A stretch of DNA of 61,321 nt from Verrucomicrobiia bacterium (lineage in GTDB: Bacteria; Verrucomicrobiota; Verrucomicrobiia; Limisphaerales; UBA11358): the NCBI GenBank assembly GCA_041482195.1, contig JBGPDH010000001.1:1-61321 (forward strand), in the 5' to 3' direction. The position numbers were made by a program, and so were the translations under genes. Of this stretch, positions 9,435 through 52,192 are shown one piece after another. The notes beneath the pieces were generated by a model that ran no database searches, had not been told where the DNA came from, and was given only the letters and a program-made list of their open reading frames with translations. How positions within the stretch are numbered: the first letter of the stretch is position 1; every line of letters starts with the position of its first letter.

Positions 9435-9479
9435 AAGGATTGCCGGACAGCATCTCAGGTTGCGGACAGGTGTAAAGAG

Positions 9480-22933: not shown

Positions 22934-23057
22934 TTCAAAAAGGACGGTTAGTCTAGTTTATCCCCGGAGCGAGGTCAAACAATGAAATCAGGTGAGCACC
23001 CCAGGCAAGATACGCTCGACCTTAAATCAAAGATTATGCTATATCTGCGGCTGGCTT

Positions 23058-33157: not shown

Positions 33158-33745
33158 CTACCATTGCGCGAGGATTCGTTCAATCTGTTCTGCATGGGCC
33201 TCCGGTGAACCATCGGTCCAGACGACAAAATTGGAGCGCGCGATTTTCTGTGCAACGGGCCATTGGGCGGCGAGGCGTTGTTGGATTTGTTCCGGTGTCC
33301 AATCCCGTTCCAATAGCCGTTGGCGCTGGTTTACCGGAGAGCAGGCGACGCAAACGGTTTTGTCAAAATACGATTCGGCCCGGGTTTCGAAAAGCAACGG
33401 GATGACCACCACAGCCAATGATTGATTTTCCCGGCGCCAGGTTTCGAGCTCCGAGAGCCAGCCTTCGCGTATACGCGGGTGAAGAATGTTTTCAAGCTGC
33501 TGGCGGGCGACGGAATCGGCGAAAACGATTTGAGCCAATGCCTCACGGCGCAGGTGGCCGTCACTGGAAACAATGTCGTCGCCAAAAAGCGATCGGATTT
33601 CTCCCAAAGCCGGCTGACCGGGTTCGACGAGCCGATGCGCCAGTTCGTCGGTATCCACGACCTGCGCACCGTGCTGGCGGAGAAATTGCGCGGCAGTGGA
33701 TTTGCCCATCCCGATGCCACCGGTCAGTCCCAACAGCTTCATCAA
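33158..33745 (-). CDS. coaE: Dephospho-CoA kinase
   Basis: LLGLTGGIGMGKST P-loop, 195 aa. Confidence 0.92.
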   Translation of the reverse strand: MMKLLGLTGGIGMGKSTAAQFLRQHGAQVVDTDELAHRLVEPGQPALGEIRSLFGDDIVSSDGHLRREALAQIVFADSVARQQLENILHPRIREGWLSELETWRRENQSLAVVVIPLLFETRAESYFDKTVCVACSPVNQRQRLLERDWTPEQIQQRLAAQWPVAQKIARSNFVVWTDGSPEAHAEQIERILAQW

Positions 33746-33897: not shown

Positions 33898-36801
33898 TTA
33901 CGGGCTCTTGATACGGTAGAATGCCGGGGTCGCGATGGCAGTTGTATCCGTGTAAGAAAGCGAGCCGCCGGCGGCTCCGCCGGTCGGGTAACCGGTTACT
34001 ATCGCCGGCCAATTGGCCGAGGGACTCCCCATGACATTGGTCTTAAGCACAGAATAGGTCGCACCCGATGTTGAATTCCATGTCAGTATAAAGGAATGTC
34101 CGTTGGAAATGTAAACGGGGCTCGAAATGGTAATGCTGGGAAGAATGATATTCGTGGACGCGGCGACAATCTGGCCCGGGAACTGTGCCTGGAGGAAATT
34201 CAAGGGCGTCTGGCCTCCCGGCGGAGTAAAGCCGAGGACGGCCTGGGAAACATAAATCTTCATGCCCGGATTGATTTGGATCATGTTTGCCAGATTCGCC
34301 GAAATGGTGGTCAGTTGAGACAAGTCGAGCGTCAAAACGTACAAGGCGTTGCTTCCAGTGGTGCCGGAGAACACGAAAAGCGGTGTGAATTGAGGCAGAT
34401 AATTTTGAGCCGACAAGGCCAACGTACCGAGGGCTACGTTGTTGATAAAGCCAATCCCGCTTGGTCCGCGGTCCTCGCCGGCCCAAGTGGAATCAACCAC
34501 CGCGTTGTTTCCGGATGCCACGGAAAACAGAGTGGAACCCAACAAATCCCCGAATTGCGGTTTTATCGACAGATTAAAGCCATTAAAACAGATAAAAGAA
34601 CTCGCCCCGCCACCATCAGACAGCGAGTTGGTCACGTTGAAATTCAAACTGCCGCCGGCCAGGAGCGCAGACTGGCTTAAGTGCAGTGTGTTGGCGCTAA
34701 AGCTGGTATCCGCCCCTGAATAAATTGAATAATAATATGGCTGCTGGTTGATTTGGAAATTCTTGGCGCCACTGATTTCGATGGACCCGGCGGTAGCGGA
34801 GAAACTGCCATAGGTAAAGTTTAACGCATTACTGATCTGGATGTCTTGACTGGCAATGGTTTGACTGGCCGAAACGATGAATCCGCCATCGCTTTGGCCT
34901 GTCCCATTATTGACGAATTCGATATACGGTGCGGCGGTGTCATCACCAAAATGCGCGTTATTCGGAACGATCAGAGCTCCGTTATTGGTGAAATAACGAA
35001 GGTTGGGTGCTTGCGCAGCGGTCCAATCCTGGAGGATGTTGGAGAGGGACAATTGCCCCAACAAGGTGAGTCCCTGCCCATCGAGCAGCATGGTCTGAGC
35101 CACGGTCAGAGAATCGCTGATGGTGTTATTGGTGCTGTGCATCACCAGGTTCTGAACCGTGACCGGCACCACCGTGGAAAGCTGGCTGGCATCCACAACG
35201 AAGATCGAAAATCCTATGGCATTGGTGGTTATATTGGTGCCCTGCATCACCGGCTGCAGGTTCGTCCATACAGCGCTCCACAGGTTTACCGGGCCGCGCA
35301 GCCGGGAAACCACTTTTTTGGCCATATTGGTCAGATTCAAAAAGCCGTTGGTGGCACCCAGATAAAAACTCAAATTCTGGCAATCCACAATGGCGCCGGA
35401 GCTGCTCACCAGGTTGCTGGTCTGGATAAGAATACCTCCCTGAGCACCCAGCCAAGTCCGGGTAAGGTCCAGGTTGTCGGCGCTAATTTGAATCACTCCG
35501 GGCAGGTTGGTCACTATCGCCGCTGCCGGTTCTGTCGCCAAATTATCAACAAAAACGCCGTAGGCACTATAGGTATTGGACACCGTGGTAAAAGCGTAAG
35601 GCGGGGACGGCGGGCCCTTATAAAAGGATGCGTCCGGCTTCCCGGCACCCACCGTACCGGCACTAAACGCCGGCAAGCCGGTCTGAGAAACAATGGGTTC
35701 AGTACGGGATACGATGTAATTGGCGGGCTGGTAGACCTTGCCGCTGCAAAGGGAGAAGGAGCTGACATTGGTGTCCACAAATAATCCCCGGTTGGTTTCC
35801 GAGCCCAAAGTATCCACCAGATAAACCGTGTTGGTAAAGAGGGCGAGGGTAAATGGATTGGTCAACGTGGCCGACAGTTTTACCGCCGCCGTTTGAAAAC
35901 CGTTTGACACCATAGAACTGGGAGTAAACCTGATCTGCGCGGTAATGCCACCGCTGGCAGTTTTGACAAAAACCGCCTGGCGCACTTCATTCGTGGGGAT
36001 TGTGGTGTTATCGAGCGAGTCAGACACGGTCGGCTGAAAGAACAGCGATGGACCGAAAGCATAGTTGGTCGAACAGTTGTTCTGCACCCCGTAAGAGGGT
36101 GCGATTACGATGCTTCCATCCCACAGCGTCACGGTATTCAGCAAGGGAATGTGTATCCCCGGCGGCAAGTCAGCCGGCGCATTGGTTTGGACCCAGTTTG
36201 TGGCAAAAAGCCCCTGGTCGAGGGCAAAATTTGTTCCGCTGATAAAACCGCTGGCGAGCAGAGAGCCGTTGATCAACAATTGGCTGCGGGACAGGTTGAC
36301 CATGCCGCCAGTTAACACGATTTGACCGTTGGGGTCGGCCTCGAGCAGCCCTTTATTCACGATATTCGTCGCCGACACCCAGAGATAACTCGCCGTGGAT
36401 AAATTCTGGGAACCGGGCGGATTGCGAACGGTGCCATCAATTGCCCGAATGGTCGCGCTGGCACTGTTATTATTAAAATTGGCCGACCAACCACGCCCCC
36501 CGATCAGGGGAAGCGGTCCGTAGTCGAATTCCCAGCCGACCGAACTCAACATCGTGCCGGTGTTGGTGTAGTTGAGTGTGTGGGAGGTCTTGTAAGGAAG
36601 CACCACACCGATAGCCCAGGTTCCGGAATTTAAAAAGTTCGTGGCGTCAACATTGGGAATGTTGTTGTTATCGATCGACCCGGTGTTGTTGTAGGTCGAA
36701 TCCGTGGCCATCCCGGTCATCGGAGTCAAAAACACACCCGCCAGCAGCAACAGGACATGCCTCCCCAGTCGCCCGACAGTTTTGGAAAAGTTCAATTTCA
36801 T
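33898..36801 (-). CDS. Giant secreted protein 3 of 3 (967 aa), N/T/S/G-rich beta-strand repeat protein, unknown function
   Basis: Signal peptide (LLLLAGVFLTPMTGMA), no catalytic motif seen, and a C-terminal W...FYRI module. Starts 15 nt after the upstream gene. Confidence 0.75.
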   Translation of the reverse strand: MKLNFSKTVGRLGRHVLLLLAGVFLTPMTGMATDSTYNNTGSIDNNNIPNVDATNFLNSGTWAIGVVLPYKTSHTLNYTNTGTMLSSVGWEFDYGPLPLIGGRGWSANFNNNSASATIRAIDGTVRNPPGSQNLSTASYLWVSATNIVNKGLLEADPNGQIVLTGGMVNLSRSQLLINGSLLASGFISGTNFALDQGLFATNWVQTNAPADLPPGIHIPLLNTVTLWDGSIVIAPSYGVQNNCSTNYAFGPSLFFQPTVSDSLDNTTIPTNEVRQAVFVKTASGGITAQIRFTPSSMVSNGFQTAAVKLSATLTNPFTLALFTNTVYLVDTLGSETNRGLFVDTNVSSFSLCSGKVYQPANYIVSRTEPIVSQTGLPAFSAGTVGAGKPDASFYKGPPSPPYAFTTVSNTYSAYGVFVDNLATEPAAAIVTNLPGVIQISADNLDLTRTWLGAQGGILIQTSNLVSSSGAIVDCQNLSFYLGATNGFLNLTNMAKKVVSRLRGPVNLWSAVWTNLQPVMQGTNITTNAIGFSIFVVDASQLSTVVPVTVQNLVMHSTNNTISDSLTVAQTMLLDGQGLTLLGQLSLSNILQDWTAAQAPNLRYFTNNGALIVPNNAHFGDDTAAPYIEFVNNGTGQSDGGFIVSASQTIASQDIQISNALNFTYGSFSATAGSIEISGAKNFQINQQPYYYSIYSGADTSFSANTLHLSQSALLAGGSLNFNVTNSLSDGGGASSFICFNGFNLSIKPQFGDLLGSTLFSVASGNNAVVDSTWAGEDRGPSGIGFINNVALGTLALSAQNYLPQFTPLFVFSGTTGSNALYVLTLDLSQLTTISANLANMIQINPGMKIYVSQAVLGFTPPGGQTPLNFLQAQFPGQIVAASTNIILPSITISSPVYISNGHSFILTWNSTSGATYSVLKTNVMGSPSANWPAIVTGYPTGGAAGGSLSYTDTTAIATPAFYRIKSP

Positions 36802-36815
36802 CTGACCTTCATCGG

Positions 36816-39143
36816 CTAATTAATCGTAATGGAATATCCCAGATTCACGGCACGTGCGATCGGAACTGTGGAATCCGTCAATTGAATAACAATATTGTCA
36901 AAGGTTCCGCTTTGCGTCGGCGTGCCGGAAATAACGCCGTTCGGGGACAAATTCAGTCCCGGGGGCAGGCCGGCCGAACCGGACGTCAGCATCCAATTAT
37001 AAGGTGCCTGCCCGCCTGCGACCACCGTGAGCGCATTGGTATAAGCTACTCCATTTGTACCCGTTGGCAAATTTGGCGGCGGTGGAGCAATCTGGATGAG
37101 GGCCTCGGCCGCCAGATTGGCCACCTGGCCGTTCGGATAAACGATGGGGGTATTGGTGCTGCCGTCGAACGAACCCCAGATAAACCAGCGATCGACGGCA
37201 TTCGGTCCAAACAGATCAAACAGAGCCTGATTCACATAATCCGGCCCGACCTCGTTAAAAGTAATCGTGGTGGCAGGATCAATCGTTCCCGGTCCGGCAT
37301 GCCCGGCCAATTCAGTGGCCTGATTTAAATTGATGTTTCGCGTGAAAGTCGGACCGTGAGTAGGACCGCCGGCAGGGCCGAGTTCGAGGTCTTGCGCTCT
37401 AAAAATAAAGTCGGGGGCGGTCAGCACACGCTGGAAATTCTCGGTTACGTACTGGCCGTTGGTGAACACCACCATGGCGTACTGGTTCGTTATCAGCTGG
37501 GTAAAGAAACCGCTTAGATAATCGTAATCCGGCACCCGCACGAACTGCATTTTGCCAATGCCCCGGTAGTTGGCGATGGCATTGATCACCTGCGTGCAGG
37601 GCTGCGTGACAAAGACATAATTGGTGAAGTAGGAAATCAGGTTTTGCACGAAGCTCTGGCCGTTAATGTTGGTAACCCCGACGAGGGCATTGGTCACAAT
37701 GTTTACATTAGTCTGAAGCGTCTGGATAATATTGGGATTACAGAAGCCGTTGCTGATAATGAAATAATCTCCCGAGGGCACATTGGATTGAAAGAACGAG
37801 TAGGAAATATTGGTGACAAAAGGCGTGCCCACCGGCTGGCCGATGACGGGCCCCACGGAAATGGTTTGAATGGCAAAGGTCGTATTGGTGTAGATCCGGT
37901 GCAACGGGTCGGTCACTACATTGCCGAAAGTGTTCTGGTAAAACTGCACGATGTTGGTCACCAGATTGGTCACCACCACTGCCGTGGCCGGCGCGTCGGC
38001 CGGCTGACCGACAAAATTGGTGAAAAAGGCGATGACATTGGGCGAGACCACGTTGCTGAAATAAGTGAACACCGGCGTGGCCCCGACGACCAACCCTGGA
38101 AACAACGCCTGCAACGCAGCCGGGCTATTGGTCAATGAGGCTGAAACCAGGGCATTGTAGTTGGAGGTGAACAACAATTGCGGCGTCGTCAGATTGATGC
38201 TGTTCAACACGCTCCCGGCTGCGGGGGATTCCAGATGAGCCGCGCTTGGCGTGTCATAATTGTTGGTGCTGTAGAGCCAGCGCAGTCCCGCGGCGTCATC
38301 CCGCGTCAACCCGGTGTAAAAAATACCGGTACGTAACGCACCCAGACCGATGCCCGAGGCCACCGGAGGATTGTTCACAGTCGGGTTAACCGGAATTTCA
38401 TAGGCATCGGCATCGGGAGTGACAGGAATACCACAGTCTTCCAGGATTTGATATCCGAACAATTCGCCATTCACATAAGGAGAATATTGACCCCAATCGG
38501 GTGGAACATAACCCAGAGGAGTGAGGTAATAGTCATAATTCCGCATCACGACGAGATATTCCAAACAATCCGGGCAGGGAGCGGTACAACCCGGGATGAC
38601 GACGCGATTGTGCAACGTCCACGTGTAACGGATGGCGTCCACCAATCCCAATTGCTCCATCATCAAACTCAGGGTTTCTGATTTGACATCCAGCAATCCC
38701 AGGCTGCTCGCCGTGAAATTCTGTCCCTGTGAATTCAACGGAAATTCCGACAGCACGGGACTGTAACCGTCGATCGCCCCCGACGGATTGTTGGTAAAGG
38801 AATTATTCAGCAGGTCGAACGCCTGTTGCACGGCGCCTTCCCCCTCGGAATGGAACCAATCCGTAAAGCTGGGATCAAAGGCATAATACATCACCGGCGA
38901 ATTGCGGCGATAGCCCTCCCCAATGTTTTTAGGACCCACTGCCAATCCGTCGACGAGAAAGGGCGGCACCACGTCACTGGGAATCGGATTGTAACCGATG
39001 TCAATGACCTGCCACAGATCGCCCTGGGGCGCGGTCGTAAAAGTGGCCGACGGTCCCAGGAGGGAATAAGCCGATGCCGATTGCAGGCCGGATGCCAACA
39101 AACCAATCCACAAAAATTTATTAATCAATGGCCTCATACACAT
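36816..39143 (-). CDS. Giant secreted protein 2 of 3 (775 aa) with a C-terminal He_PIG-type Ig domain
   Basis: Signal peptide (FLWIGLLASGLQSASA), a Cys cluster PGCTAPCPDCLEY, and C-terminal LPTGTNGVAYTNALTVVAGGQAPYNW ... LPPGLNLSPNGVISGTPTQSGTF (He_PIG, PF05345-like). Starts 1 nt after the upstream stop. Confidence 0.75.
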   Translation of the reverse strand: MCMRPLINKFLWIGLLASGLQSASAYSLLGPSATFTTAPQGDLWQVIDIGYNPIPSDVVPPFLVDGLAVGPKNIGEGYRRNSPVMYYAFDPSFTDWFHSEGEGAVQQAFDLLNNSFTNNPSGAIDGYSPVLSEFPLNSQGQNFTASSLGLLDVKSETLSLMMEQLGLVDAIRYTWTLHNRVVIPGCTAPCPDCLEYLVVMRNYDYYLTPLGYVPPDWGQYSPYVNGELFGYQILEDCGIPVTPDADAYEIPVNPTVNNPPVASGIGLGALRTGIFYTGLTRDDAAGLRWLYSTNNYDTPSAAHLESPAAGSVLNSINLTTPQLLFTSNYNALVSASLTNSPAALQALFPGLVVGATPVFTYFSNVVSPNVIAFFTNFVGQPADAPATAVVVTNLVTNIVQFYQNTFGNVVTDPLHRIYTNTTFAIQTISVGPVIGQPVGTPFVTNISYSFFQSNVPSGDYFIISNGFCNPNIIQTLQTNVNIVTNALVGVTNINGQSFVQNLISYFTNYVFVTQPCTQVINAIANYRGIGKMQFVRVPDYDYLSGFFTQLITNQYAMVVFTNGQYVTENFQRVLTAPDFIFRAQDLELGPAGGPTHGPTFTRNINLNQATELAGHAGPGTIDPATTITFNEVGPDYVNQALFDLFGPNAVDRWFIWGSFDGSTNTPIVYPNGQVANLAAEALIQIAPPPPNLPTGTNGVAYTNALTVVAGGQAPYNWMLTSGSAGLPPGLNLSPNGVISGTPTQSGTFDNIVIQLTDSTVPIARAVNLGYSITIN

Positions 39144-39144
39144 T

Positions 39145-41148
39145 TCACTGGCGCAGGAGCATCACGCGGTAATAGCCCGCGGAACTCTTGCCGATAAAAA
39201 TCGAATCACTGGTGCCCGCCGAGAACCTGGGCGACCCCAGATTGCTCCACGCCCCGAGGTTCGTCGCCGCCTGCACCTGATAGGTCAATCCCGGCTGGGT
39301 GTTCCAACTGAGGAACAAGCCCTGGGGCGTGTTGCTGAGGGTCGTTCGCAGCCAGGTGCCGGGATCCAGCGGATTGCCGCCACTCAGGAACACCTGCAAC
39401 AGGGTCGGCCCGCCTGGAGCCAGCACCGTGTTTGCCCCCGGCCACTTGCTGATGTCGCTGCCGTAATATTGCGTCATCCATTCAAACGGAATCCCGCCCC
39501 AGTTATACCCCTGCCACGTCGTGCCGCTGGCGGACGGCGACAGCGGTGACTTCCGGCCATCCTGCGTCAGGTAATCCACGCGGAACGAATGGGTGCTGCT
39601 GGCCGTCAGACCATTTGCGGACGTCATCGTCCATACGTTGCTGGAGGTGGTTGCCGTTGGATTGGGTGAACCATCCACATATATTTCGTAGTTGGAAATC
39701 GAAAGTCCGGTCACGGGCGTCCACGATACGACCAATTGCGGCTGATACGCGTTGCTGACGATGACAAACGGCGCATAGACAAAGGGTGCCGGAAGCGGTT
39801 CCAGCGGTTGCAGGGTATTGATATAACGTTGCGCGAACAGATCGAATCCGTACGTCAGGCCGGTGAAACTGCTCCATAGCGACAGAAACTGACTGACCCC
39901 ATCCGAAACGACCACTGGCTGGATCTGCGAGCCGGCCGTGGTGGTATTGACGCGGAATTCGGTGCTGACCACTGAACCATTACCGCGGAGAAATTGTCCA
40001 TAGGCCCCTTCCCGCGAGCCGTCCTGCGCCAGACTCGTCCAGACAATCAAATAATCCGTTCCCAGCGCGGCAATGCGCGGAGTGAATTGGTCGCCGAACC
40101 GGTATGAATTGACCCGCATTACCGTGCCACCGATATCGGCACTTGAAAACCCACGGGCGTAAACGTCCATGCTGTTGGTAAAGGTGCTGGTCAGATCACG
40201 TGCGTCCCAGGCGATCACGAAACCGCCATCCGAACCGGCAGCCACGGCGGGGTCATCACATGGATTTGAATCCACATCTACGAGAAACTCATTTCCCTGA
40301 GCCGTCCCACTGCCGTTGTAAGACCTGGCATAAATATCCACGCTGGGAAAGGTGACGGCCGTGCTGGGGGTTCCACCGGCCGGATTGGCAATATTGACCT
40401 GTGTGCGCTCCTGTTCGGACACCCAGGTGGCGATAAATCCGCCGTTGACCAATGCTACCACCGCCGGGGCACGCTGGTTGAAGGCGTAATTGGGATTGTT
40501 GGCCGGGTCAAACTGATTGATTAAAAATTCACCGGTGACGGGTGTCCCCGCCGGCGAAAAGATCCGGCCATAAACATCCTGCATGCTTCCGGGGGCGGCT
40601 TCACTGAAACTGGCCCAGACTACGATGACATTTCCGTGGGGGAGAGTGGCCACCGCGGGGGTAATTTGGAAATAATTGGTAGAAGTGTTGACCATCACAT
40701 CACCGGTAAGCCAGGTGTTGCTGGAAGATAAAAATCGTGCGTAGATATGCTGGAACCCTTTGGGTCCGCCTTGCCAGACAAACGCCGCGCCGCCGCTTCG
40801 CAGCAAGGTCACCCTCGGATTTTCCTGATCCCCGGCACCTTGGACGTTAACGCGGAAGGAACTGCCGGAACCGGAAAGCGTCCCGTTCAACTGCATCGTA
40901 CTCACTCCCCAGCCGTCACCGTCGGTGATGTTGTCCTGCCAGACTGTAAAACCGCCGCCGGGCGTTACGGCCACGTCCGGATGAACCTGATCACCCGCCT
41001 GCGGTCCGACCATGGCATATTCCGTCCCGTTCGTCGCGTAATAGTTCGTCTGGCCCCCAACCACGACCGGAAGCGCAAGTATCCACCCCCAGCAAAGGCC
41101 AACAACAACCTGGCGGCTGAATAATCCCGATTGGATGGCGGTACTCAT
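39145..41148 (-). CDS. Giant secreted protein 1 of 3 (667 aa): seven-repeat propeller-like region, FN3, C-terminal module
   Basis: Signal peptide, seven ~55-aa repeats (GDQxxPxVA ... GGFxVxW ... D[VI]YxR), an FN3-like segment (LVVSWTPVTGLSISNYEIYVDG), IPFEWMTQYYG, and W...YYRV at the end. Confidence 0.75.
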   Translation of the reverse strand: MSTAIQSGLFSRQVVVGLCWGWILALPVVVGGQTNYYATNGTEYAMVGPQAGDQVHPDVAVTPGGGFTVWQDNITDGDGWGVSTMQLNGTLSGSGSSFRVNVQGAGDQENPRVTLLRSGGAAFVWQGGPKGFQHIYARFLSSSNTWLTGDVMVNTSTNYFQITPAVATLPHGNVIVVWASFSEAAPGSMQDVYGRIFSPAGTPVTGEFLINQFDPANNPNYAFNQRAPAVVALVNGGFIATWVSEQERTQVNIANPAGGTPSTAVTFPSVDIYARSYNGSGTAQGNEFLVDVDSNPCDDPAVAAGSDGGFVIAWDARDLTSTFTNSMDVYARGFSSADIGGTVMRVNSYRFGDQFTPRIAALGTDYLIVWTSLAQDGSREGAYGQFLRGNGSVVSTEFRVNTTTAGSQIQPVVVSDGVSQFLSLWSSFTGLTYGFDLFAQRYINTLQPLEPLPAPFVYAPFVIVSNAYQPQLVVSWTPVTGLSISNYEIYVDGSPNPTATTSSNVWTMTSANGLTASSTHSFRVDYLTQDGRKSPLSPSASGTTWQGYNWGGIPFEWMTQYYGSDISKWPGANTVLAPGGPTLLQVFLSGGNPLDPGTWLRTTLSNTPQGLFLSWNTQPGLTYQVQAATNLGAWSNLGSPRFSAGTSDSIFIGKSSAGYYRVMLLRQ

Positions 41149-41208
41149 GGTATGAATCTAGGTCGAGCCGGTAGCGTTTGTCTGTCAGTTGGAATACAAC
41201 TATTACTA

Positions 41209-41223
41209 TAGTGTTTGACACTA
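41209..41223. promoter_or_regulatory. Perfect palindrome TAGTGT-TTG-ACACTA upstream of the giant-protein operon
   Basis: Read directly. It lies 61-75 nt upstream of the ATG at 41148 and abuts a TATAGT hexamer on the coding (minus) strand. Confidence 0.3.
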
Positions 41224-41388
41224 CAAAGGAGAGTCTGGCGACTGAACGGCCATTGCATAATCGATTCTGCCGATTCTAGATATCCGCAGTGGTTTTGTCC
41301 AAAAATTACTTCGACAAATCCTCTGCGGTGCAGTCCGAATTGGGTCACCGAAAACCAATTTTCAAATTTGTGTCGCAAGTTCATTTTC

Positions 41389-42273
41389 CTAAATCAAAAT
41401 CGCCTGGCATACCTGGGTTTCTTCCCCCAGCGCCGCCAGCAGCGTCTTAAACCCCCACCGCCGGTACAATTCACGCAGTCGGCCGGTGTCCGCCGGCCTT
41501 TCCACCAGCTCAACCGGTGAAAAGGCAGCCGGCAAATCATCGCGTAAACGCACCAGCGCCTGGTTGCGCCGGACCGTCGCCTCGGTTGCGCTGAGGTTCG
41601 TACGGAGTTTTTCCGATTTCACTTCGCTCAGCTTTTCATACAGCGCATTCACGGACCCAAACCGGTTCAGCAACTCCGCGGCGGTCTTGGGCCCCACCCC
41701 GGACACACCCGGAATGTTGTCCACGCTGTCTCCGGTCAGGCTCAACCAATCCACCATTTGCGACGGTTTCACGCCGGCTTTCTCCCGGACCTGTTCGTCC
41801 GTCCAAATCGTTTCGGTCTTGTCATTCGGGTTCAACAACCCGATCTGCCCGGACACCAATTGCATAAAATCTTTGTCGGCGCTGGCAATGACCACAGACA
41901 TACCGGCCGCCGCCGCCCGTTGCGCCAGGCCCGCGATGTAATCATCTGCCTCGACGCCTTCCCGGCAAATCGAGGTAATTTGCGCTGCCTGCAAATAAGC
42001 GACGATTTCGTCAAGTTGTGGCTTGAGGTCCGCCGGCATTTCCGGCCGTTGCGCCTTGTACTCGGGCAGCGCCGCGACGCGTTCGGCGTTCAGTCCGCCG
42101 TCCCAAACCACAATCAAATGCGTTGGCCCCACCGTCGCCCGCATCTTCGCCAGCATTTTGACAAAACCATAAATCGCATTCGTTGGCTGGCCGGTCGGTG
42201 AGCGCAACTCGCGAATCGCGTGAAACGCGCGATAGGCATAAGCGTGTCCGTCAACAATCAGCAACCGGCCCAT
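41389..42273 (-). CDS. Stand-alone 5'-3' exonuclease / flap endonuclease (Pol I N-terminal-domain-like)
   Basis: MGRLLIVDGHAYAYRAFHAI, SADKDFMQLV, and H3TH LTGDSVDNIPGVSGVGPKTAAELL. At 294 aa there is no polymerase domain. Confidence 0.9.
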   Translation of the reverse strand: MGRLLIVDGHAYAYRAFHAIRELRSPTGQPTNAIYGFVKMLAKMRATVGPTHLIVVWDGGLNAERVAALPEYKAQRPEMPADLKPQLDEIVAYLQAAQITSICREGVEADDYIAGLAQRAAAAGMSVVIASADKDFMQLVSGQIGLLNPNDKTETIWTDEQVREKAGVKPSQMVDWLSLTGDSVDNIPGVSGVGPKTAAELLNRFGSVNALYEKLSEVKSEKLRTNLSATEATVRRNQALVRLRDDLPAAFSPVELVERPADTGRLRELYRRWGFKTLLAALGEETQVCQAILI

Positions 42274-42347: not shown

Positions 42348-42995
42348 CTATTGCGGAGGCAACGTCACCATTTTGTCGGTTTCCTTTGCCTGCCCGGCCC
42401 CCGGCGGTTGCGGCGGAATCGCATTTTGTGCAAACGGCAGTTCGTCGTCCGAATGAAGCCGGTTGCCGGCGGGATCCACAATCGTCGCGGTGACAAAAAT
42501 CATCAGATTCTTTTTGACCGCAATCTTGTTCTGGCTTTGAAAGAGACGGCCGACAATCGGCAAATCGCCCACCACTGGCACCTTGTCTTTCTCGGTCTGG
42601 GTCGAGGTGAGGATCATTCCGCCCAGAATGACTGTCTGGCCATCCCAAATGTTCACCGTGGTGAGGACCTGTCGAATACTAAAGCTCGGTAAAATGACCG
42701 GCAATTGGACCACATTCAGGCCACCCGTCACATTGGCGATATCGGGTGGCGTTTGGTAGCCGGCGAATTCGGTCACCGAGGGGATCAGGGTCAGGTTGAT
42801 CGTGTATCCGTCGGAAAGAACATAGGGCACGACGTCCAGCAACGGACCGGTTTCGATCGCCTGGGTGGTCGGCGTAATGGCCGAGACACCGGGGACAAAG
42901 GTGTTGTTTTGTGCCTGGGTCATTCTGGTGGCGCCCAACGCAACCGACAGGCCCAGCATCAGTTTGAAAATTTTATTTGTGGTATGTATTTTCAT
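42348..42995 (-). CDS. Secretin C-terminal half encoded as a separate ORF with its own signal peptide
   Basis: MKIHTTNKIFKLMLGLSVALGATRMTQAQ, then secretin blocks LLDVVPYVLSDGYTINLTLIPSV, VNIWDGQTVILGGM, KVPVVGDLPIVGRLF and NLMIFVTATIV. Confidence 0.75.
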   Translation of the reverse strand: MKIHTTNKIFKLMLGLSVALGATRMTQAQNNTFVPGVSAITPTTQAIETGPLLDVVPYVLSDGYTINLTLIPSVTEFAGYQTPPDIANVTGGLNVVQLPVILPSFSIRQVLTTVNIWDGQTVILGGMILTSTQTEKDKVPVVGDLPIVGRLFQSQNKIAVKKNLMIFVTATIVDPAGNRLHSDDELPFAQNAIPPQPPGAGQAKETDKMVTLPPQ

Positions 42996-43015
42996 CTTTG
43001 GTGGCGAGAAATATT

Positions 43016-45313
43016 TTAAGGAGTGGTGCCCGTGGTGGTCGCAGCCTGCCCTTGCTGGAAGCTGAAGCCCGTGATTACCGTTATGACCAGCGTGGCCCGC
43101 ATTTCGGTTTGCCGACCGCTGGTGGTGGTCACCTCCGGTTCCGCGAGTTCTTCAAAGCCGCTGCGCTGCTCCAGGGCGTGAAGCACGACGCGGAAATTGG
43201 GATTGGTTAAAATGCCGGTGATGGTGGCCAGGGTGGGAAGAGTCGCGTTCGCCGGCGCATTGGGGGTCGTCCCATTAGGCCCAAATATCTGCTGGTCCGA
43301 CGCTGAAGAGGGAATCTGATTGGCACCCGTCGGCCCGGGGAACGGGACCGTCGAGCCTCCGGGGCCGGGAACATTAAGTGACGGCGCACTGCCGCCCTGG
43401 GCGGCAACCGAATGCCCGATATTGAACTGTCCCAGATACCAATCGAACCCCAAACCCGCATTGTCATCCTGTTCAACCTGAATGAACCGGGACTTGATAT
43501 GAACCTGCGGGGCCACCTGGTTTAATGCCTGAATCGCACTTTCAATGGTGTCCAAATCCTGCATGGTCGCTCGAACAAACAACAACCCCAACCGATCATT
43601 GAAGAAAATATTTTTGGGCGGGAACAAATTTACACCCAACGTTGAGAAAAAGTCCCGGGCGGCTATGCTGACATCCACCATACTGTTGGTAAGAGTCACA
43701 TAATTCAATCCGCCGTTGCCGTTTTGACCACCCCCGCCACCCCCACCCCCGCCACCTCCGCCACCCCCGCCGCTGGAGCGATTGCCTGAACCTGGCGCCG
43801 CGTTGACAACTGCCAACAGGCCCACCGACGTGCTATTATTGCCACCACTGCTACCGCCGCCGCCACCTCCACCGCCGCCACCTCCACCGCCGCCACTACT
43901 GCCACTTCCACCGCTGCCGCTACTGTTAACAAATTGGAGTGACCCGACACTTGCCAGGCCCTGCACGAATGTATTGGCATCTATTTTGAAAGTCCGCGCG
44001 AAAAGCTGGGGAGAACGGGGTCCTTTGGCCGAGAAAACAACGGCATATTCATTAATGGAATATTCAATGGGATGATCCGCAACCTCTACAATCGCATCCA
44101 GCGCATCCGCCATCCGCACATCGTTAAGCGCCGGGTTGATCCGGACAATGACCGAATTGATATCCACGGACTCGGATCCGGTTGACGATGCCGAGGCGAT
44201 CGGCAGGCCGGTCGCCGGGTCAATTGCGCCGCCGCCGCCGCCGGCTCCGGCAGGGGCCCCTCCGGGGCCGCCAAATGGGGAACCCGCCCCGCCGGTGGGT
44301 GTGGTCGTGGTTACGGATGCGGAATTGTCCGTGTTGGGATTAATCAGAAAGTTGATGCCGATCTTGTCAGGGTCGCGCAGTTTGGCCTGTTCGCTCAAGT
44401 TGCGAACGACTTCGCTCAACGGAAGGCCGTCGTAAATCACCGTGTCGAGCCGTATGCGGTTCAGTTTGCTCATGATCACTTCCCGACCTGGCCCCGTATG
44501 GATGAGGTTGGTGGTGGCATACGAATTGGGCGTGGGCAAAGCTCCACTTTTTCTCAAACCGGAATCCGCCCATGCCTTGGTCACCTCTGTAATGCGACCC
44601 TGGTTGTCGTAGTCCTTGATGCGCTCCTGCCTCGCGTAAATGCCTTGTTTGCACAGGCTCAGATAATAAAAAGCGCCTTGATTGACCGGGTCCAGCTTCA
44701 CCGCCTGTTGCAATTTGGCTTCGGCTTCTTCAAATTTGCCCATCTCGTAAAGCAGTTTGCCATCCCGAACCAGTGTGTCTGCGTCGGTCTTCTGATTGGC
44801 AATGGCCTGCGCCTGTTGAACCGTCGCGTCGTCCGGCACTTTCCCGCGCATCGCGGCAATCTTCTCGTCATTCTCCTTCTTGAAAGCGATGGCCGCGGGA
44901 TTCTGTGGGTCTACCTTCAAAACGCGATTGACCTGCGTGTCGGCCTCCCGCAAATCGTCGCGCTGCTGCGCTTCCCGGGCCAGTTCCATTCTCACCGCTA
45001 CCAGCCCGGAAATGGTTTCCGCGGATTCGTCCGAAATTCCGGAACCAATCGATTGCACCAGACTGTAGGCATCCTCGTAAAGCCGGGCGGCGACCGCCAG
45101 GTCACCACGGGCGGCAGCGTCCTTGGCTTGCACCAGCTTCTGACGCAGGACCACGGTGTTGGCCTGTCGTAACACCGCCTCGCTGACGGCCGTGTCAGCG
45201 ACACTGTTTGTCTGGGCGGGCGACAAGAGGGTGCCGGCCGCTATGAAGAGGATCCCGAGTGAAACAGAAACTACTTTTGTCATGGATGAATTCGGGTTAG
45301 TCGGTGTCAGCAT
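43016..45313 (-). CDS. Secretin N-terminal part: signal peptide, TPR-like region, N-domains, poly-Gly tracts, first half of the secretin domain
   Basis: N0/N1-like RIRLDTVIYDGLPLSEVVRNL and LLFVRATMQDLDTIESAIQALN. Secretin-domain onset QVHIKSRFIQVEQDDNAGLGFDW. It ends after LAEPEVTTTSGRQTEMRATLV with TAA at 43016. Confidence 0.8.
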   Translation of the reverse strand: MLTPTNPNSSMTKVVSVSLGILFIAAGTLLSPAQTNSVADTAVSEAVLRQANTVVLRQKLVQAKDAAARGDLAVAARLYEDAYSLVQSIGSGISDESAETISGLVAVRMELAREAQQRDDLREADTQVNRVLKVDPQNPAAIAFKKENDEKIAAMRGKVPDDATVQQAQAIANQKTDADTLVRDGKLLYEMGKFEEAEAKLQQAVKLDPVNQGAFYYLSLCKQGIYARQERIKDYDNQGRITEVTKAWADSGLRKSGALPTPNSYATTNLIHTGPGREVIMSKLNRIRLDTVIYDGLPLSEVVRNLSEQAKLRDPDKIGINFLINPNTDNSASVTTTTPTGGAGSPFGGPGGAPAGAGGGGGAIDPATGLPIASASSTGSESVDINSVIVRINPALNDVRMADALDAIVEVADHPIEYSINEYAVVFSAKGPRSPQLFARTFKIDANTFVQGLASVGSLQFVNSSGSGGSGSSGGGGGGGGGGGGGGSSGGNNSTSVGLLAVVNAAPGSGNRSSGGGGGGGGGGGGGGGQNGNGGLNYVTLTNSMVDVSIAARDFFSTLGVNLFPPKNIFFNDRLGLLFVRATMQDLDTIESAIQALNQVAPQVHIKSRFIQVEQDDNAGLGFDWYLGQFNIGHSVAAQGGSAPSLNVPGPGGSTVPFPGPTGANQIPSSASDQQIFGPNGTTPNAPANATLPTLATITGILTNPNFRVVLHALEQRSGFEELAEPEVTTTSGRQTEMRATLVITVITGFSFQQGQAATTTGTTP

Positions 45314-45344: not shown

Positions 45345-46139
45345 TCATTTGGAATTGTACGGTCGCGTTATCTTTTTCTGGTTCGATTTGGCGGATAGTA
45401 CCACCTCGTTCTGGTTTATGGCAACGATAATGTAATCATCGCCCGCAAATTTTAGATCATCCCCCACACGCTGTCCTTCCCAGTTCCTTCCCTCGGGACT
45501 GTATTTCAAATCCGCCAGGTAGGCGTCCGCACGCCGGAAGGGTTTGTTCCTGGATAAGCTCACCGTCTCACCGGAATCCGTCAGCTGCAAAACCAATTGG
45601 GTCGGGTCCGCGGGCGGCCCCTGCACCGCGGTGATGGTGAAGGCGTCATTTTTTTCGCCGATGGAGGCGTAATGTTGCCGTTTCGCCCGCCGCCACGCCA
45701 CCGGCTCGGCCTGGCGCTCCACGCCCACAATGTAGCGCGCGCCGAATTGATTGGTCTGCACCGAATCCAGTGTCAGGATGAAGTACAAGGGCGCAACCCG
45801 GGTCACGGCCACGGCATCGGGGCCGATCTCGTTGCCACTCTCAATCTTGATCAGGCTTCCGTCCACTGCTTTTTGCCACTCGACCGGATTGAAGAGCCGG
45901 TTGGTCGTCTCCAAATCGAGCCGGTAAGACAGTTGCAACCGCTGCATGGTGTTGCTCTCCGTCGTCAAATCCAACACCGGAAGCGGTTTGACCGGATGCC
46001 TGATGATGCCAGTGCGGGTTTCTTCCAGTTGGTTGCGGTCATGCAAAATCATGAACGGCAAAAACACCATGGCCCCCACCAAACCGAACAACACTACGCC
46101 CAGGAGAATTTTTTCGTAATGTTTTTTAAGGAAATCCAT
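45345..46139 (-). CDS. TM-anchored beta-rich protein in the PilP position (Amuc_1099-like by position)
   Basis: One N-terminal TM segment (ILLGVVLFGLVGAMVFLPFMIL). It sits between the Amuc_1100-like gene and the secretin. The assignment is positional only. Confidence 0.45.
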   Translation of the reverse strand: MDFLKKHYEKILLGVVLFGLVGAMVFLPFMILHDRNQLEETRTGIIRHPVKPLPVLDLTTESNTMQRLQLSYRLDLETTNRLFNPVEWQKAVDGSLIKIESGNEIGPDAVAVTRVAPLYFILTLDSVQTNQFGARYIVGVERQAEPVAWRRAKRQHYASIGEKNDAFTITAVQGPPADPTQLVLQLTDSGETVSLSRNKPFRRADAYLADLKYSPEGRNWEGQRVGDDLKFAGDDYIIVAINQNEVVLSAKSNQKKITRPYNSK

Positions 46140-46143
46140 GCGC

Positions 46144-47085
46144 TTAGTTTCCCGACGTCAATTTCACTATTTCAACCTGCAAGGTGACGCTCAAAAGCTG
46201 CTCGTCGAGCACCGTCTGCAGGCCGCCCCTGCCCGGAGGTGCCGCAGGCCGACTGGCAGGCGCTGCCGGCCGTGCATAAGCAGGCACCTCAGGCTCGCCG
46301 AATGTAGGTGAGCCGGGAGACGGCGAAGTGGTGGTGGCGCCGGCCGCCGGTTGCACATTTATGGCTTTGACGATGAACCCATGCGGCGAGATCGCAAAGC
46401 TCGACAACACCTTCGCCAGGTCCTGACTGAAACAACGAAAGGTAACTTCATAAGGGGTAATAACGGCAAGCTCATTGGTTATTGTCGGGTGATCAGTATA
46501 ATCGGCTTGCGGTCCGACCGCGTCATCATCCGAAGCCCGTACACGTCGAATCCCATCCAGCGCATTAATCCTCGCCGCATAAAGAAGTTCACAAATCATT
46601 TTTACCTCGCCCAGCTGTTGCGACAACGCGGTCAGGGTGCCAGGGGCGAATTTTACCGAGGTTCGTTCCGCTTCAAATGAGAAGCCATACTGGGGCGGCA
46701 AAGTGACACTGGCATTGTTCGCTTCCGCCTGCAACTGGCTGAGGATGTGATCGCGCGCGGCGGCAAATCTGGCATCGGTGATCGCGCCTTTCGCGGGATC
46801 CGGTATGGGTGGAATGGGCTGAAAATATTGCCCGGCTTGCTGGATCCATTGCTGCAACTGTTGTTGCTGCACTCGGGCGGCCTGGATGTTGTCAATCGTG
46901 TCATTGCCCGGCGATGGATTTTGGGCGCTCAACCTTTTCAACGTCTCATACGTTTGATTCAGCGCATCCAGTGCCGTGTTATTGCGTTGCCAGTTCTGGT
47001 AATCATAAACCCCCGCCGCCGCCAGCAAGCCCGCGGCAATGACAGCACCGACGACAAAAAACAAATTTCGTTTAATCCAGGCCAT
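46144..47085 (-). CDS. Amuc_1100-family pilus-like protein (PilO position)
   Basis: N-terminal TM segment, helical region, mixed alpha/beta core (GEVKMICELLYAARINALDGIRRV ... YEVTFRCFSQDLAKVLSSF), Pro/Ala-rich linker, and terminal strand LSVTLQVEIVKLT. This matches the architecture I recall for Akkermansia Amuc_1100. Confidence 0.6.
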   Translation of the reverse strand: MAWIKRNLFFVVGAVIAAGLLAAAGVYDYQNWQRNNTALDALNQTYETLKRLSAQNPSPGNDTIDNIQAARVQQQQLQQWIQQAGQYFQPIPPIPDPAKGAITDARFAAARDHILSQLQAEANNASVTLPPQYGFSFEAERTSVKFAPGTLTALSQQLGEVKMICELLYAARINALDGIRRVRASDDDAVGPQADYTDHPTITNELAVITPYEVTFRCFSQDLAKVLSSFAISPHGFIVKAINVQPAAGATTTSPSPGSPTFGEPEVPAYARPAAPASRPAAPPGRGGLQTVLDEQLLSVTLQVEIVKLTSGN

Positions 47086-47086
47086 G

Positions 47087-48904
47087 CTACAAATTCAAAG
47101 GGTTGCGCAGCACCGCTGAAACTCCAAAGGTGAACGTGCCGGAGGCATCTTCCGGATTGATCTGACCGGTCAGTTGTGTCGTTTTGGGATCAAAAAGGGA
47201 ACTCGTCTGCAATTCGTTCTCCAGCGTGTACGCGATGTCACTGTTCGCCGCCGGATCGACCTTGGACAAACTCACCGCCCGGCAAACCACGGAGATGGCG
47301 CCCGGCCTGGTGGATGAAGATTGGTTTTGCGCCGGGTTCATCGCTCCGCCGGCCAACTCGTTGTCCGACGGCACTCCGACCGGCATCCCCGGCCTGCCCG
47401 GGACGTTGGGCGCGGAGAGGGTTGTCCGCATGGTAATGAATTGTTCGATCCAAATTCCCGCCTGCACCCCCCCCCGCTGCGCAGACATTTTCTTTTGAAC
47501 ATCATTCTCAGCACGGATGAGCACCCGTCGCAAGTCCGCCAGGATATCACTCCAGTAATACCGATCGTTCATCCAGGCACTGATTTGTTCGGCTTGCTGC
47601 CGGGTGGCACCGACTTGCCCGTAAACCTTGTTGAACTGGTCGGCCTTGGTTTGCAGTTTTTGAACCTCCGGCTTGAGGCGTTCCAGCTCGTCCTCTTTCG
47701 ATATGGCCAGTTTTTCGAAGAGGAACCCGACCGCAAACGCCACCGCCACCAGACTGAACACCGTTGCCGTGAAATACGGTTTCTTTTCGTTGAAAGTGCG
47801 CCAGCGCAGCGTGCTCTCCGGCATCAGGTTCATTTCCACCGGACAGTTCGCCAGATTGCGCAGGCCCAGGCCGACAACTTCCCCCAGAGAATGGGCGACG
47901 CGCGCCAGTTCCTCCAGGTTCACCGCCGGATCGATCTGCACATTACGGAAGGGATTGAAGTATTCGACCGGCGCGTTCAGTTTCTCAGCAAAAAATTGCG
48001 CCGTATACGGCATGATGGAAGCCCCGCCGGCCAGGAAGAGCCGTTGCGGTGCCGCTCCGCCCATCTGGCCGCGATAAAACTGAATCGTCTGGTTGACCTG
48101 AATGTGCAGCTTGGTCATGAACTGCCGGGCAATCTTGGAAATCGCCGCCTGATTGGGATTCTCCGGTTCTTCGTAGGCACCGCCCAGACTGACGAAACCT
48201 TCAGCCACTTTGATTTGCTCGGCGACTTCAAATCTCAGCTTCGCCTCGTTCGCAAAATCCTGGGTGATGGAATTGGCACCCAGGTTGATGCTGCGGGCAA
48301 ACACTTTGCCTTTTTCGAAGAAGAGCAGGTTGCTGGTCTTGGCGCCGATGTCCAGCAACAGCGTGCAATCCTCCAGGTCCCCATAGTTGTAGCGAAATGC
48401 GTTGCAGAGCGCCGCCGGTGACACGTCGCACAATTGCAACCGCAACTTCGCCTCCTCGGCAATCCGGAACAATCCCTCCACAATCTCCGACTTGATGGCC
48501 ACCAACAACACTTCCAGTTCCCCCGTCGGACTCGAACCCAGAATTTGGTAGTCCCACACCACTTCCGCCAGCGGGAACGGCACATTCTGTTGCGCCTCGT
48601 ACTGGATGATTTGCGTCACCTTGCCCGCGTCCACCGGCGGGAGTTTGACGAATTTGGAAAACACCTGAAAACCGGGTGCGCAGACATTGATGTTCCGTGC
48701 TGCGCCGCCGGTTTCCGCCAGCGTTTCCCGCAGCACCTTGAGCAAGGCCGTTTCGCGCGAGGCGTCCGACGCCCCCTCCGGTCCCAATGACTTCAACTTG
48801 AAATTCTTCAGGCAGAGGATGCCGGCTTCGTTGATTTCAAAGATTGCCAGTTTGAGACTGCCGGCCCCGAAATCCACTGCCAAAAATGACTTTAAGTTAA
48901 GCAT
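47087..48904 (-). CDS. pilM: PilM-like actin-fold ATPase fused to a PilN-like TM/coiled-coil region (Amuc_1101-like)
   Basis: LAVDFGAGSLKLAIFE, LLLDIGAKTSNLLFF, LFLAGGASIMP, then a TM segment (YFTATVFSLVAVAFAVGFLF) and a coiled coil. An ATG start is chosen; a TTG at 48934 is also possible. Confidence 0.8.
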   Translation of the reverse strand: MLNLKSFLAVDFGAGSLKLAIFEINEAGILCLKNFKLKSLGPEGASDASRETALLKVLRETLAETGGAARNINVCAPGFQVFSKFVKLPPVDAGKVTQIIQYEAQQNVPFPLAEVVWDYQILGSSPTGELEVLLVAIKSEIVEGLFRIAEEAKLRLQLCDVSPAALCNAFRYNYGDLEDCTLLLDIGAKTSNLLFFEKGKVFARSINLGANSITQDFANEAKLRFEVAEQIKVAEGFVSLGGAYEEPENPNQAAISKIARQFMTKLHIQVNQTIQFYRGQMGGAAPQRLFLAGGASIMPYTAQFFAEKLNAPVEYFNPFRNVQIDPAVNLEELARVAHSLGEVVGLGLRNLANCPVEMNLMPESTLRWRTFNEKKPYFTATVFSLVAVAFAVGFLFEKLAISKEDELERLKPEVQKLQTKADQFNKVYGQVGATRQQAEQISAWMNDRYYWSDILADLRRVLIRAENDVQKKMSAQRGGVQAGIWIEQFITMRTTLSAPNVPGRPGMPVGVPSDNELAGGAMNPAQNQSSSTRPGAISVVCRAVSLSKVDPAANSDIAYTLENELQTSSLFDPKTTQLTGQINPEDASGTFTFGVSAVLRNPLNL

Positions 48905-49022
48905 TGCTGTGTTTGCGCCGTGCACTGCCGACAAAAGGGCGCTTGAACTTTTACCGTCTATAAGTACAGCCCGTGTTCAGTACTGTAAATTTTCTGGACG
49001 GTCAAACACAAAACTTGGAAAA

Positions 49023-49118: not shown

Positions 49119-49397
49119 ATGAAGCGATGCCGCATGTGTATTTTTTACTCAGGCCACGTGCAGGGTGTCGGTTTTCGTTATACGGCGAAAACGGTGGCTG
49201 CCGGATTTGAAGTGACCGGCACGGTGCGCAATCTGCCGGATGGCCTGGTGGAGTTGACCGCCGAAGGTGCACGCGCTGAGCTCGAAGCCTTCCGTACGGC
49301 CATTCGGGATGCGGGGCTGGCCGGGTTGATCCGGGACGAGGCCATCACCTGGAGTGACGCGCAAAATGTAATGCATGGATTTGAGATCGTTCGATAG
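49119..49397 (+). CDS. acyP: Acylphosphatase
   Basis: GHVQGVGFRYTA ... GTVRNLPDGLVEL ... 92 aa. Confidence 0.9.
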   Translation: MKRCRMCIFYSGHVQGVGFRYTAKTVAAGFEVTGTVRNLPDGLVELTAEGARAELEAFRTAIRDAGLAGLIRDEAITWSDAQNVMHGFEIVR

Positions 49398-49403
49398 ACG
49401 CAA

Positions 49404-52142: not shown

Positions 52143-52192
52143 ACCTGTAACCTTTGGCCAATTCTTCCGTTGTATGGGGTGAAAGCAGAATT

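Follow-up and report, generated by a model that had tools for sequence, protein, structure and literature searches.

Secretin Loci Related to MUL2

The Amuc_1098-1102 cluster of Akkermansia encodes abundant envelope proteins, among them the outer-membrane secretin PilQ (PMC4960237, PMC5332112). The cluster, described as four or five genes (PMC5332112, PMC13174399), now goes by the name of MUL2 locus. It reportedly plays an important part in the acquisition of mucin (bioRxiv 10.64898/2025.12.30.696933; PMC13174399) and has been heavily studied for host effects and mucin foraging. Its neighbors in Akkermansiaceae are a secretion-channel gene, the gene for dephospho-CoA kinase, and rho (PMC13174399). 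The DNA analyzed here, 61,321 nucleotides (nt) of contig JBGPDH010000001.1 from a Verrucomicrobiia bacterium (the window), carries an extended variant of this locus, the closest known system. Three adjacent genes, called A, B, and C, lie just downstream of its secretin and encode predicted exported proteins whose families are themselves uncharacterized. An earlier note, made from the letters of the window alone, had suggested that the trio might be a co-translated surface, adhesin, or cargo complex, possibly exported through the neighboring secretin.

The likeness to MUL2 lies in gene content and order: genes for a PilM-like protein, an Amuc_1100-like protein, a small membrane protein, and a TPR-secretin with Amuc_1098_fam as its best NCBIfam match stand upstream of the trio in the same order as in Akkermansia. 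The window differs in having three large exported proteins added, for which an Akkermansia counterpart is unreported, in having its secretin split in two, in lacking a detected Amuc_1102 homolog, and in family scores that fall below the NCBIfam curated cut-offs. The literature yielded no description of the trio, nor any paper on Amuc_1097.

A second point of comparison is the type II secretion system (T2SS) with an adjacent substrate gene, as with the pullulanase PulA, encoded next to the pul genes. Here too, large Sec-exported, folded, mostly beta proteins are found beside a secretin and a PilM/GspL-like platform, and in some lineages hydrolase domains are attached to C. However, no pseudopilin, ATPase, or platform genes are present near the trio, which consists of three co-conserved non-enzymatic proteins rather than one enzyme.

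An Exported Trio Linked to the Secretin

The three genes are transcribed in the order A, B, C.

39145..41148, minus strand: gene A, a 667-residue exported propeller protein, the best conserved of the trio
36816..39143, minus strand: gene B, a 775-residue exported protein that begins with an alpha/beta domain and continues through a beta stalk and beta-sandwiches to an Ig-like end
33898..36801, minus strand: gene C, a 967-residue exported all-beta protein, the fastest-evolving of the trio

The explanation preferred here, held tentatively and at slightly less than an even chance, is that A, B, and C make up a secretin-dependent surface or cargo assembly that binds or processes polymers, with A proximal, B a spacer, and C distal. 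Each protein would be exported by the Sec pathway and fold in the periplasm, and the folded proteins would be passed outward through the secretin or mounted on it, assembling in a 1:1:1 ratio. The conserved propeller of A would form the machine-proximal part, the stalk of B, which varies widely in length, would act as the spacer, and the fast-evolving, beta-solenoid-like body of C would project as the distal part. At its distal end C would bear a small Ig-like module in some lineages and a GH30 or GH44 hydrolase in others, and such ends suggest binding or processing of extracellular polymers. A C-terminal W...FYR module, common to A, C, and unrelated secreted enzymes, may serve as an export or attachment tag.

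Support comes from gene neighborhoods in relatives. A relative of A is encoded at 102 loci, which represent 91 distinct A sequences at 95% identity; 8 of the loci come from GTDB genomes, 80 from JGI metagenome contigs, and the remainder from exact-protein look-up. Record and protein names point to Verrucomicrobiia and Limisphaerales, and the habitats are soil, peat, and freshwater. Wherever there is room on the contig, B follows A (75 of 75 loci) and C follows B (60 of 60). The spacers of 1 nt between A and B and 14 nt between B and C in the window are close to the medians among relatives, 1.5 nt (range -4 to 13, n=84) and 14 nt (n=31). The earlier description of three open reading frames (ORFs) of 667, 775, and 967 residues, 1 and 14 nt apart, agrees exactly with the ORF list, although calling proteins of 667-967 residues giant was an exaggeration. 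Its proposal of co-translation fits the close spacing kept among relatives; the trio makes up a single, tightly coupled unit of transcription and translation.

All 67 loci whose sequence reaches at least 1.5 kb upstream of A encode a secretin there. The co-occurrence that the earlier note had thought worth examining, of the three genes with each other and with the pilus-like cluster, is thus found at both levels. The usual order is two small ORFs, PilM, the Amuc_1100-like gene, a gene for a 264-residue membrane protein, the secretin, a 5'-3' exonuclease gene (exo53), A, B, C, an optional fourth gene, coaE, and glgB. In the window the trio lies between exo53 and coaE, as first described, and the secretin ORFs, on the same strand, end 1200 nt upstream of A.

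47087..48934, minus strand: PilM-like gene (PilM_2, E 8e-34)
46144..47085, minus strand: Amuc_1100-like gene (NF038287, Amuc_1100_fam, E 8.7e-22, 77.9 bits against a cut-off of 180)
45345..46139, minus strand: 264-residue membrane protein
42348..45313, minus strand: Amuc_1098-type TPR-secretin in two ORFs, 43016..45313 and 42348..42995 (Pfam Secretin and TPR; NCBIfam Amuc_1098_fam)
41389..42273, minus strand: exo53, a stand-alone, cytoplasmic 5'-3' exonuclease (Pfam), between the secretin and A
33158..33745: coaE

Distant loci, those with A at 34-40% identity to A of the window, show which part of this array stays together. At L092/L093, L096, L097, and L100 the trio stands directly behind an unsplit secretin of 961-995 residues or, on short contigs, behind what is left of a secretin gene at its end. 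What lies farther upstream differs in distant lineages (A at 34-37% identity) and may encode EpsI, a sugar transferase (Bac_transf), an epimerase, or DHFR/lactamase. The downstream flank also varies, with coaE or genes for large Calx-beta or Flg_new_2 proteins; at L100 and L101 further large secreted proteins take the place of coaE. Because both outer flanks change in these lineages, the constant part of the array is the run of genes from PilM to C. The PilM gene itself is present in all relatives with enough flank. The intervening exo53 is found between the secretin and A in 64 of 67 loci and is missing in the L092/L093 and L096 lineages and at L100, so it is not an obligatory part of the block. 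The trio is placed invariably just downstream of the PilM/Amuc_1100-like/secretin cluster, even with differing outer flanks. From a link that holds in all 67 loci, export of A, B, and C through the neighboring secretin is a reasonable hypothesis.

Sequence divergence within the trio is also consistent with this arrangement. Identity to A, B, and C of the window is 75, 59, and 44% at locus L001 and 55, 42, and 29% at L008. This conservation gradient, A over B over C, is what would be expected if A lies close to the machine and C is exposed. In degree of conservation A is close to the secretin (73-75% identity at L001).

Several points weigh against a secretin-dependent assembly. The loci come mostly from one clade, and 11 pairs are near-duplicates. 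The housekeeping genes exo53, coaE, and glgB share much of the conserved synteny of the trio, so that gene order by itself says little about function. A is preceded by a promoter-like site of its own and is separated by 240 nt from the genes upstream. MUL2 of Akkermansiaceae is drawn with the dephospho-CoA kinase gene beside the channel gene and with no trio (PMC13174399), so that the machine evidently works without A, B, and C there. Finally, the localization of the proteins, contact among A, B, and C, and dependence on the secretin all rest on genomic inference.

Some of these points would also suit a different account, in which the trio consists of secreted or surface proteins of an ordinary kind, resembling adhesins or surface-layer proteins. 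They would be exported by some general pathway, for example a Gsp-type T2SS with its genes elsewhere, and their position would be a matter of inherited gene order that carries no functional meaning. The unrelated exo53, coaE, and glgB are equally syntenic in most loci, the trio has a promoter-like site of its own, and the W...FYR module recurs at the end of unrelated secreted enzymes encoded elsewhere in the window. This account is nevertheless rather doubtful, as the PilM-to-C block is intact while both outer flanks change, the sole intervening gene is dispensable, and the link to the secretin has no exception among the 67 loci.

If A, B, and C are the outward-facing part of a secretin-dependent assembly, they would offer a concrete way to learn what secretin systems of this kind bind or transport. 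A large group of Verrucomicrobiota from soil, peat, and freshwater has the same type of locus together with three strictly co-inherited exported proteins. Whatever its role, the trio defines three sizeable families; clustered at 90% identity, the scored candidates form about 2000 clusters for A, 670 for B, and more than 160 for C. If the preferred explanation is correct, it would also provide a candidate C-terminal tag common to many secreted enzymes of these abundant polymer degraders.

Two observations concern the sampled loci themselves. A few contigs with this plainly verrucomicrobial locus are placed in bins called Candidatus Limnocylindrales, Acidiferrales, and Sulfopaludibacter (L001, L007, and, by name, P0021, P0145, and P0262), and these contigs are probably mis-binned. 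In addition, exo53 has a conserved place inside an array of envelope-protein genes.

Export Signals and Composition

The N-termini of A, B, and C each have positive charge, a hydrophobic stretch, and small residues ahead of the mature part. Judged by reading the sequence, all three are of the Sec type, in line with the signal peptides named in the earlier note, and inspection finds no transmembrane-like segment beyond the N-terminus in A, B, or C. Residue counts bear out the reported richness in N, T, S, and G, and K and E are very scarce.

The fraction of charged residues (K+R+E+D) is 0.105 in A, 0.090 in B, and 0.077 in C. Proteins of the window predicted to act outside the cell have similar values: 0.103 in a GH16 protein, 0.108 in a PEP-CTERM protein, and 0.10-0.13 in two other proteins ending in W...FYR. 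Values are higher elsewhere: 0.135-0.166 in the secretin ORFs, 0.20-0.26 in cytoplasmic proteins, and 0.237 in a SurA-like periplasmic protein. A, B, and C thus share a charge-poor make-up with the other predicted extracellular proteins of the window.

Family searches covered the single sequences of A, B, and C against Pfam, NCBIfam, and PDB, subsets of the A and C families against Pfam, and family profiles of all three against PDB. No characterized family, whether of enzymes or adhesins, is assigned to A, B, or C in these searches. Neither Pfam nor NCBIfam recognizes an outer-membrane anchor or translocator domain in the trio, or matches an autotransporter C-terminal beta-barrel or two-partner secretion (TPS) domain. 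Fil_haemagg is matched by 1 of 43 C-family members only (Pfam).

The lack of a recognized anchor or translocator domain, together with a degree of conservation in A close to that of the secretin, could be taken to mean that the trio stays inside, as periplasmic, trans-envelope structural parts of the machine. This is improbable, since the charge-poor make-up resembles that of the predicted extracellular proteins and not that of the SurA-like protein, C carries glycoside hydrolase domains in relatives, and both the fast evolution of C and the range in length of B (458-1438 residues) would be unusual for an envelope component of fixed span.

Vertical Inheritance of the Block

The earlier note had also described the block as less GC-rich than its flanks and as a possible insertion into a housekeeping neighborhood. 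Overall GC is indeed lower in B and C, at 53.5% against about 57-59%, but not in A. The deficit stems from codon position 1, and so from amino-acid composition, rather than from GC content at third positions (GC3), which is 0.684 in A, 0.644 in B, and 0.652 in C and within the 0.61-0.75 of other window genes. Codon-usage distances of the three genes are likewise unremarkable within the window, so the GC and codon-usage profile that had been suggested as a check speaks for native genes.

Apart from the low overall GC of B and C, there is little to recommend a genomic island recently acquired between exo53 and coaE. GC3 and codon usage are native, the trio sits at one and the same position in every related locus, at identities as low as 34%, and the 61-kb window contains no tRNA genes and no Rfam match. 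As to mobility, the block has no tRNA flanks, and no search was aimed at integrase or other mobility genes. A recent island is very improbable; A, B, and C are vertically inherited.

The trio looks inserted only on a deep scale, as the Akkermansiaceae MUL2 synteny lists none of the three genes (PMC13174399). The dephospho-CoA kinase gene beside the channel gene in that family (PMC13174399) suggests that the secretin-coaE neighborhood is old. In the clade analyzed here, the space between secretin and coaE is filled by the trio, either alone or together with the exonuclease gene.

The Secretin Cluster

Amuc_1098_fam is the best NCBIfam match of both secretin ORFs (E 5e-55 and 2e-37), in each case far below the 750-bit cut-off. 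The two ORFs are in different frames, 20 nt apart, and it is the Secretin domain itself that is interrupted midway (GspD model positions 301-464 before the break and 472-591 after it). A separate signal peptide (MKIHTTNKIFKLMLGLSVALGATRMTQAQ) is present in the second ORF. Akkermansia has a single secretin of 907 residues (PMC4960237). Of 58 assessable related loci, 44 have a split gene and 14, including all distant lineages, an unsplit one (901-995 residues). On this evidence, the secretin of the window looks like a genuine two-polypeptide secretin.

The Amuc_1100-like protein has no PDB sequence match, and PF28028 is recorded for its orthologs. A pilin-like counterpart of Amuc_1102 (MUL2A) was looked for in the two small ORFs upstream of PilM, which have no NCBIfam match; 49149..49856 has no PDB match. 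Both ORFs are absent from the distant loci.

Protein A

A has about 2063 homologs, the best 120 at 58-94% identity. In the family alignment (A3), column identity averages 51%, and conservation is even and strong along the protein; the signal peptide is the least conserved block.

41053..41148, minus strand: predicted Sec signal peptide, residues 1-32, with hydrophobic residues 12-30 followed by VVGG|Q (read from sequence)
39814..41049, minus strand: seven propeller-type repeats, residues ~34-445, with the motif FxVN..AGxQ..P.VA....GGF..VW.S....D.YAR
39529..39759, minus strand: FN3-like domain, residues 464-540 (Pfam fn3, E 0.002, 18.7 bits against a cut-off of 25)
39355..39516, minus strand: TSP3-like linker, residues ~545-598, with the motif GIPxEW...GGNPLDP
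39148..39351, minus strand: C-terminal Ig-like W...FYR module, residues ~600-667, which ends 115 of 120 A-family members

The sevenfold repeat region noticed earlier is borne out by a segment alignment, in which seven segments align on one common motif, and these repeats are predicted to form a seven-bladed propeller. The propeller module is present in 19,354 representative proteins, 2,536 of them at E<1e-30 (phmmer, 1.84 billion representative proteins), and occurs in up to 34 copies in proteins of 2,000-7,900 residues, some with RTX repeats. No Pfam model covers it, as judged by scanning A itself and relatives. Its presence in thousands of large exoproteins points to a widespread module of extracellular proteins that Pfam has yet to model. 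A resembles the giant RTX-type exoproteins in these repeats, which match thousands of such proteins at E<1e-30, some with HemolysinCabind repeats, but it differs in having a single propeller, in lacking RTX repeats, and in its constant association with B and C.

The rest of A is less distinctive. The FN3 domain named in the earlier note is a weak match in the window, with a score below the cut-off, and 5 of 42 A relatives match fn3 (best E 5e-5); fn3 is also recorded for one distant A ortholog. The linker motif is kept in the A3 consensus, and a weak TSP3_bac match is recorded for the L099 ortholog.

A Sec-exported, seven-bladed propeller protein encoded beside a PilM/secretin cluster invites comparison with pilus-tip proteins. 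PilY1-type proteins are large Sec-exported propeller proteins, with a propeller domain of their own (Pfam PF05567). By analogy, the trio could resemble a complex of PilY1 and minor pilins at the tip, priming and capping a filament extruded through the secretin. A is like PilY1/PilC in being an exported seven-bladed propeller protein encoded with pilus-biogenesis-type genes, but it shows no sequence relationship and a different domain order: its propeller is N-terminal and of a module typical of giant exoproteins. No PilY1/PilC match is found with Pfam in A, B, or C at E<=1, or in 42 A-family members at E<=0.01. Minor pilin genes are lacking, B and C are not pilin-like, and the prepilin motif G[FMLIVY][TS]L[ILVM]E does not occur in any frame of the 61-kb window. 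This last result counts in favor of the secretin-dependent surface or cargo assembly, and the chance that the trio is a PilY1-like tip complex appears slim.

Protein B

There are 666 homologs of B, and its AlphaFold model has a predicted local distance difference test (pLDDT) score of 83.

38094..39068, minus strand: alpha/beta N-domain, residues 26-350 (model secondary structure)
37584..38081, minus strand: stalk of long beta-strands, residues ~355-520, strands of 11-21 residues (model)
37125..37577, minus strand: beta-sandwich region, residues ~523-673, which aligns in all distant orthologs (model)
36819..37076, minus strand: C-terminal Ig-like domain, residues ~690-775, of He_PIG type in relatives

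The mature N-terminus, (F/Y)SLLGP, is near-invariant, with G30 and P31 invariant, and it is kept in orthologs at about 33% identity. The N-domain that follows has no match in Pfam, NCBIfam, or PDB sequence searches, and a Foldseek comparison of the B model with the PDB gives generic tandem-Ig matches only. The stalk is missing from orthologs of 458-493 residues and enlarged in those of 950-1438 residues. The He_PIG-type Ig domain described earlier finds no match in B of the window; He_PIG (PF05345) is clear in aligned B homologs (E 2e-9).

A metzincin-like pseudo-protease was considered for the N-domain, prompted by the motif LTRDDxAGLRYLY. It was rejected because the family has no invariant His and hhalign gives a probability of 1.3%, in a comparison with an approximate sequence of the MMP-3 catalytic domain, in which only a 14-residue motif aligned.

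Protein C

Homologs of C range from 26 to 87% identity. The AlphaFold model of C has a pLDDT of 87.8 and a predicted template modeling score (pTM) of 0.80.

34192..36705, minus strand: all-beta body, residues 33-870, with stretches of rungs ~20 residues apart, solenoid-like (DSSP strand spacing)
33901..34149, minus strand: C-terminal W...FYR module, residues ~885-967

C has no Pfam or PDB sequence match, and Foldseek searches with its model fall short of significance, with a best E of 0.89 against the PDB and 0.013 against BFVD. The first 130 residues of C are conserved. Within a trio that is without characterized relatives, C is thus a confidently modeled all-beta fold without a PDB analog.

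Some C homologs have a GH30 (P0128) or GH44 (P0136) domain inserted before the terminal module, which remains at the extreme C-terminus in all GH-fused variants. Pfam finds neither catalytic domain in C of the window. In many relatives a further gene follows C, for example at L002 (16990..20991), L005 (17389..21402), L054 (18067..22086), L045 (17447..21974), and L100 (19454..22061). It encodes a pro-kumamolisin/sedolisin-type protease of about 1,330 residues with a Flg_new_2 domain, or another very large protein; Calx-beta and DUF5122 domains are recorded for that of L100, and the sedolisin-type protein of L054 ends in the W...FYR module. The lineage of the window has no fourth gene after C. 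The earlier statement that the trio lacks a catalytic motif thus stands for A, B, and C of the window and fails in relatives, where C can carry GH30 or GH44 and a sedolisin-type protease gene can come after it.

A bolder proposal can be built on these fusions. The MUL2-type machine of environmental Verrucomicrobiota would be a polymer-acquisition device, with a propeller-stalk-solenoid arm that captures polysaccharide or protein, which some lineages would cut with GH30, GH44, or sedolisin, and the W...FYR module would be an undescribed tag for export or attachment that the secretin system recognizes. In this full form the proposal is unlikely.

The W...FYR Module

The W...FYR module reported in the earlier note is real at the C-termini of A and C. 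The module of A matches the C-terminus of C and also that of a distant C ortholog (37.5% over 64 residues); it is found in 0 of 120 members of the B family. Two other proteins of the window end in it.

7377..9434, minus strand: Exo_endo_phos and Ig protein of 685 residues, predicted secreted
22992..24695, plus strand: predicted secreted protein of 567 residues without an assigned family

Four proteins with this ending in 61 kb suggest a common C-terminal domain of the exoproteins of this organism, and it is modeled by neither Pfam nor NCBIfam.

The nearest known parallel is the C-terminal domain (CTD) of the type IX secretion system (T9SS), Por_Secre_tail. Like the T9SS CTD, the W...FYR module is small and of beta type, always stands at the extreme C-terminus, is common to unrelated secreted enzymes, and keeps its terminal place where catalytic domains are inserted. 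The trio differs in that A, B, and C match neither Por_Secre_tail nor any other Pfam or NCBIfam sorting domain, and in that B is without the module.

Leader and Promoter-like Site Upstream of A

The promoter-like site is the best consensus match in 33-43 kb, and its -35 block and -10 pattern are conserved in aligned relatives.

41273..41301, minus strand: promoter-like site TGGACA-17-TAGAAT, within the 240 nt that separate A from exo53
41145..41258, minus strand: leader segment, an upstream ORF of 37 codons that ends in a TGA overlapping the start codon of A (ATGA)
41209..41223, minus strand: palindrome TAGTGT-CAA-ACACTA in the leader, invariant in the sub-clade

The palindrome occurs once in the window, against 0.04 copies expected, and once per locus in 15 of 99 loci, nearly always about 60-75 nt upstream of A. 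Only the sub-clade of the window has a segment of about 135 nt between a vestigial start and the present ATG of A, and both the upstream ORF and the palindrome lie within it. The sequence TTCAGYCGCCAG is duplicated, with one copy at each end of this segment. At L005, about 1.1 kb of extra sequence (8874..10004) lies between the leader palindrome and A and contains a 376-residue ORF with no Pfam match.

Other Features of the Window

A gene directly after that of a sigma-70 region 2 protein (51248..52054), and divergent from the pilus-like cluster, combines two domains, and two further genes adjoin each other.

52154..55825, plus strand: 1,223-residue protein with a Ser/Thr protein kinase domain and a SecDF P1-head-like domain
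56438..57079, plus strand: small PEP-CTERM protein
57183..60389, plus strand: 1,068-residue FN3 and GH16 protein

The PEP-CTERM protein suggests that the organism also uses anchoring of the exosortase type, and both it and the GH16 protein are charge-poor like A, B, and C.

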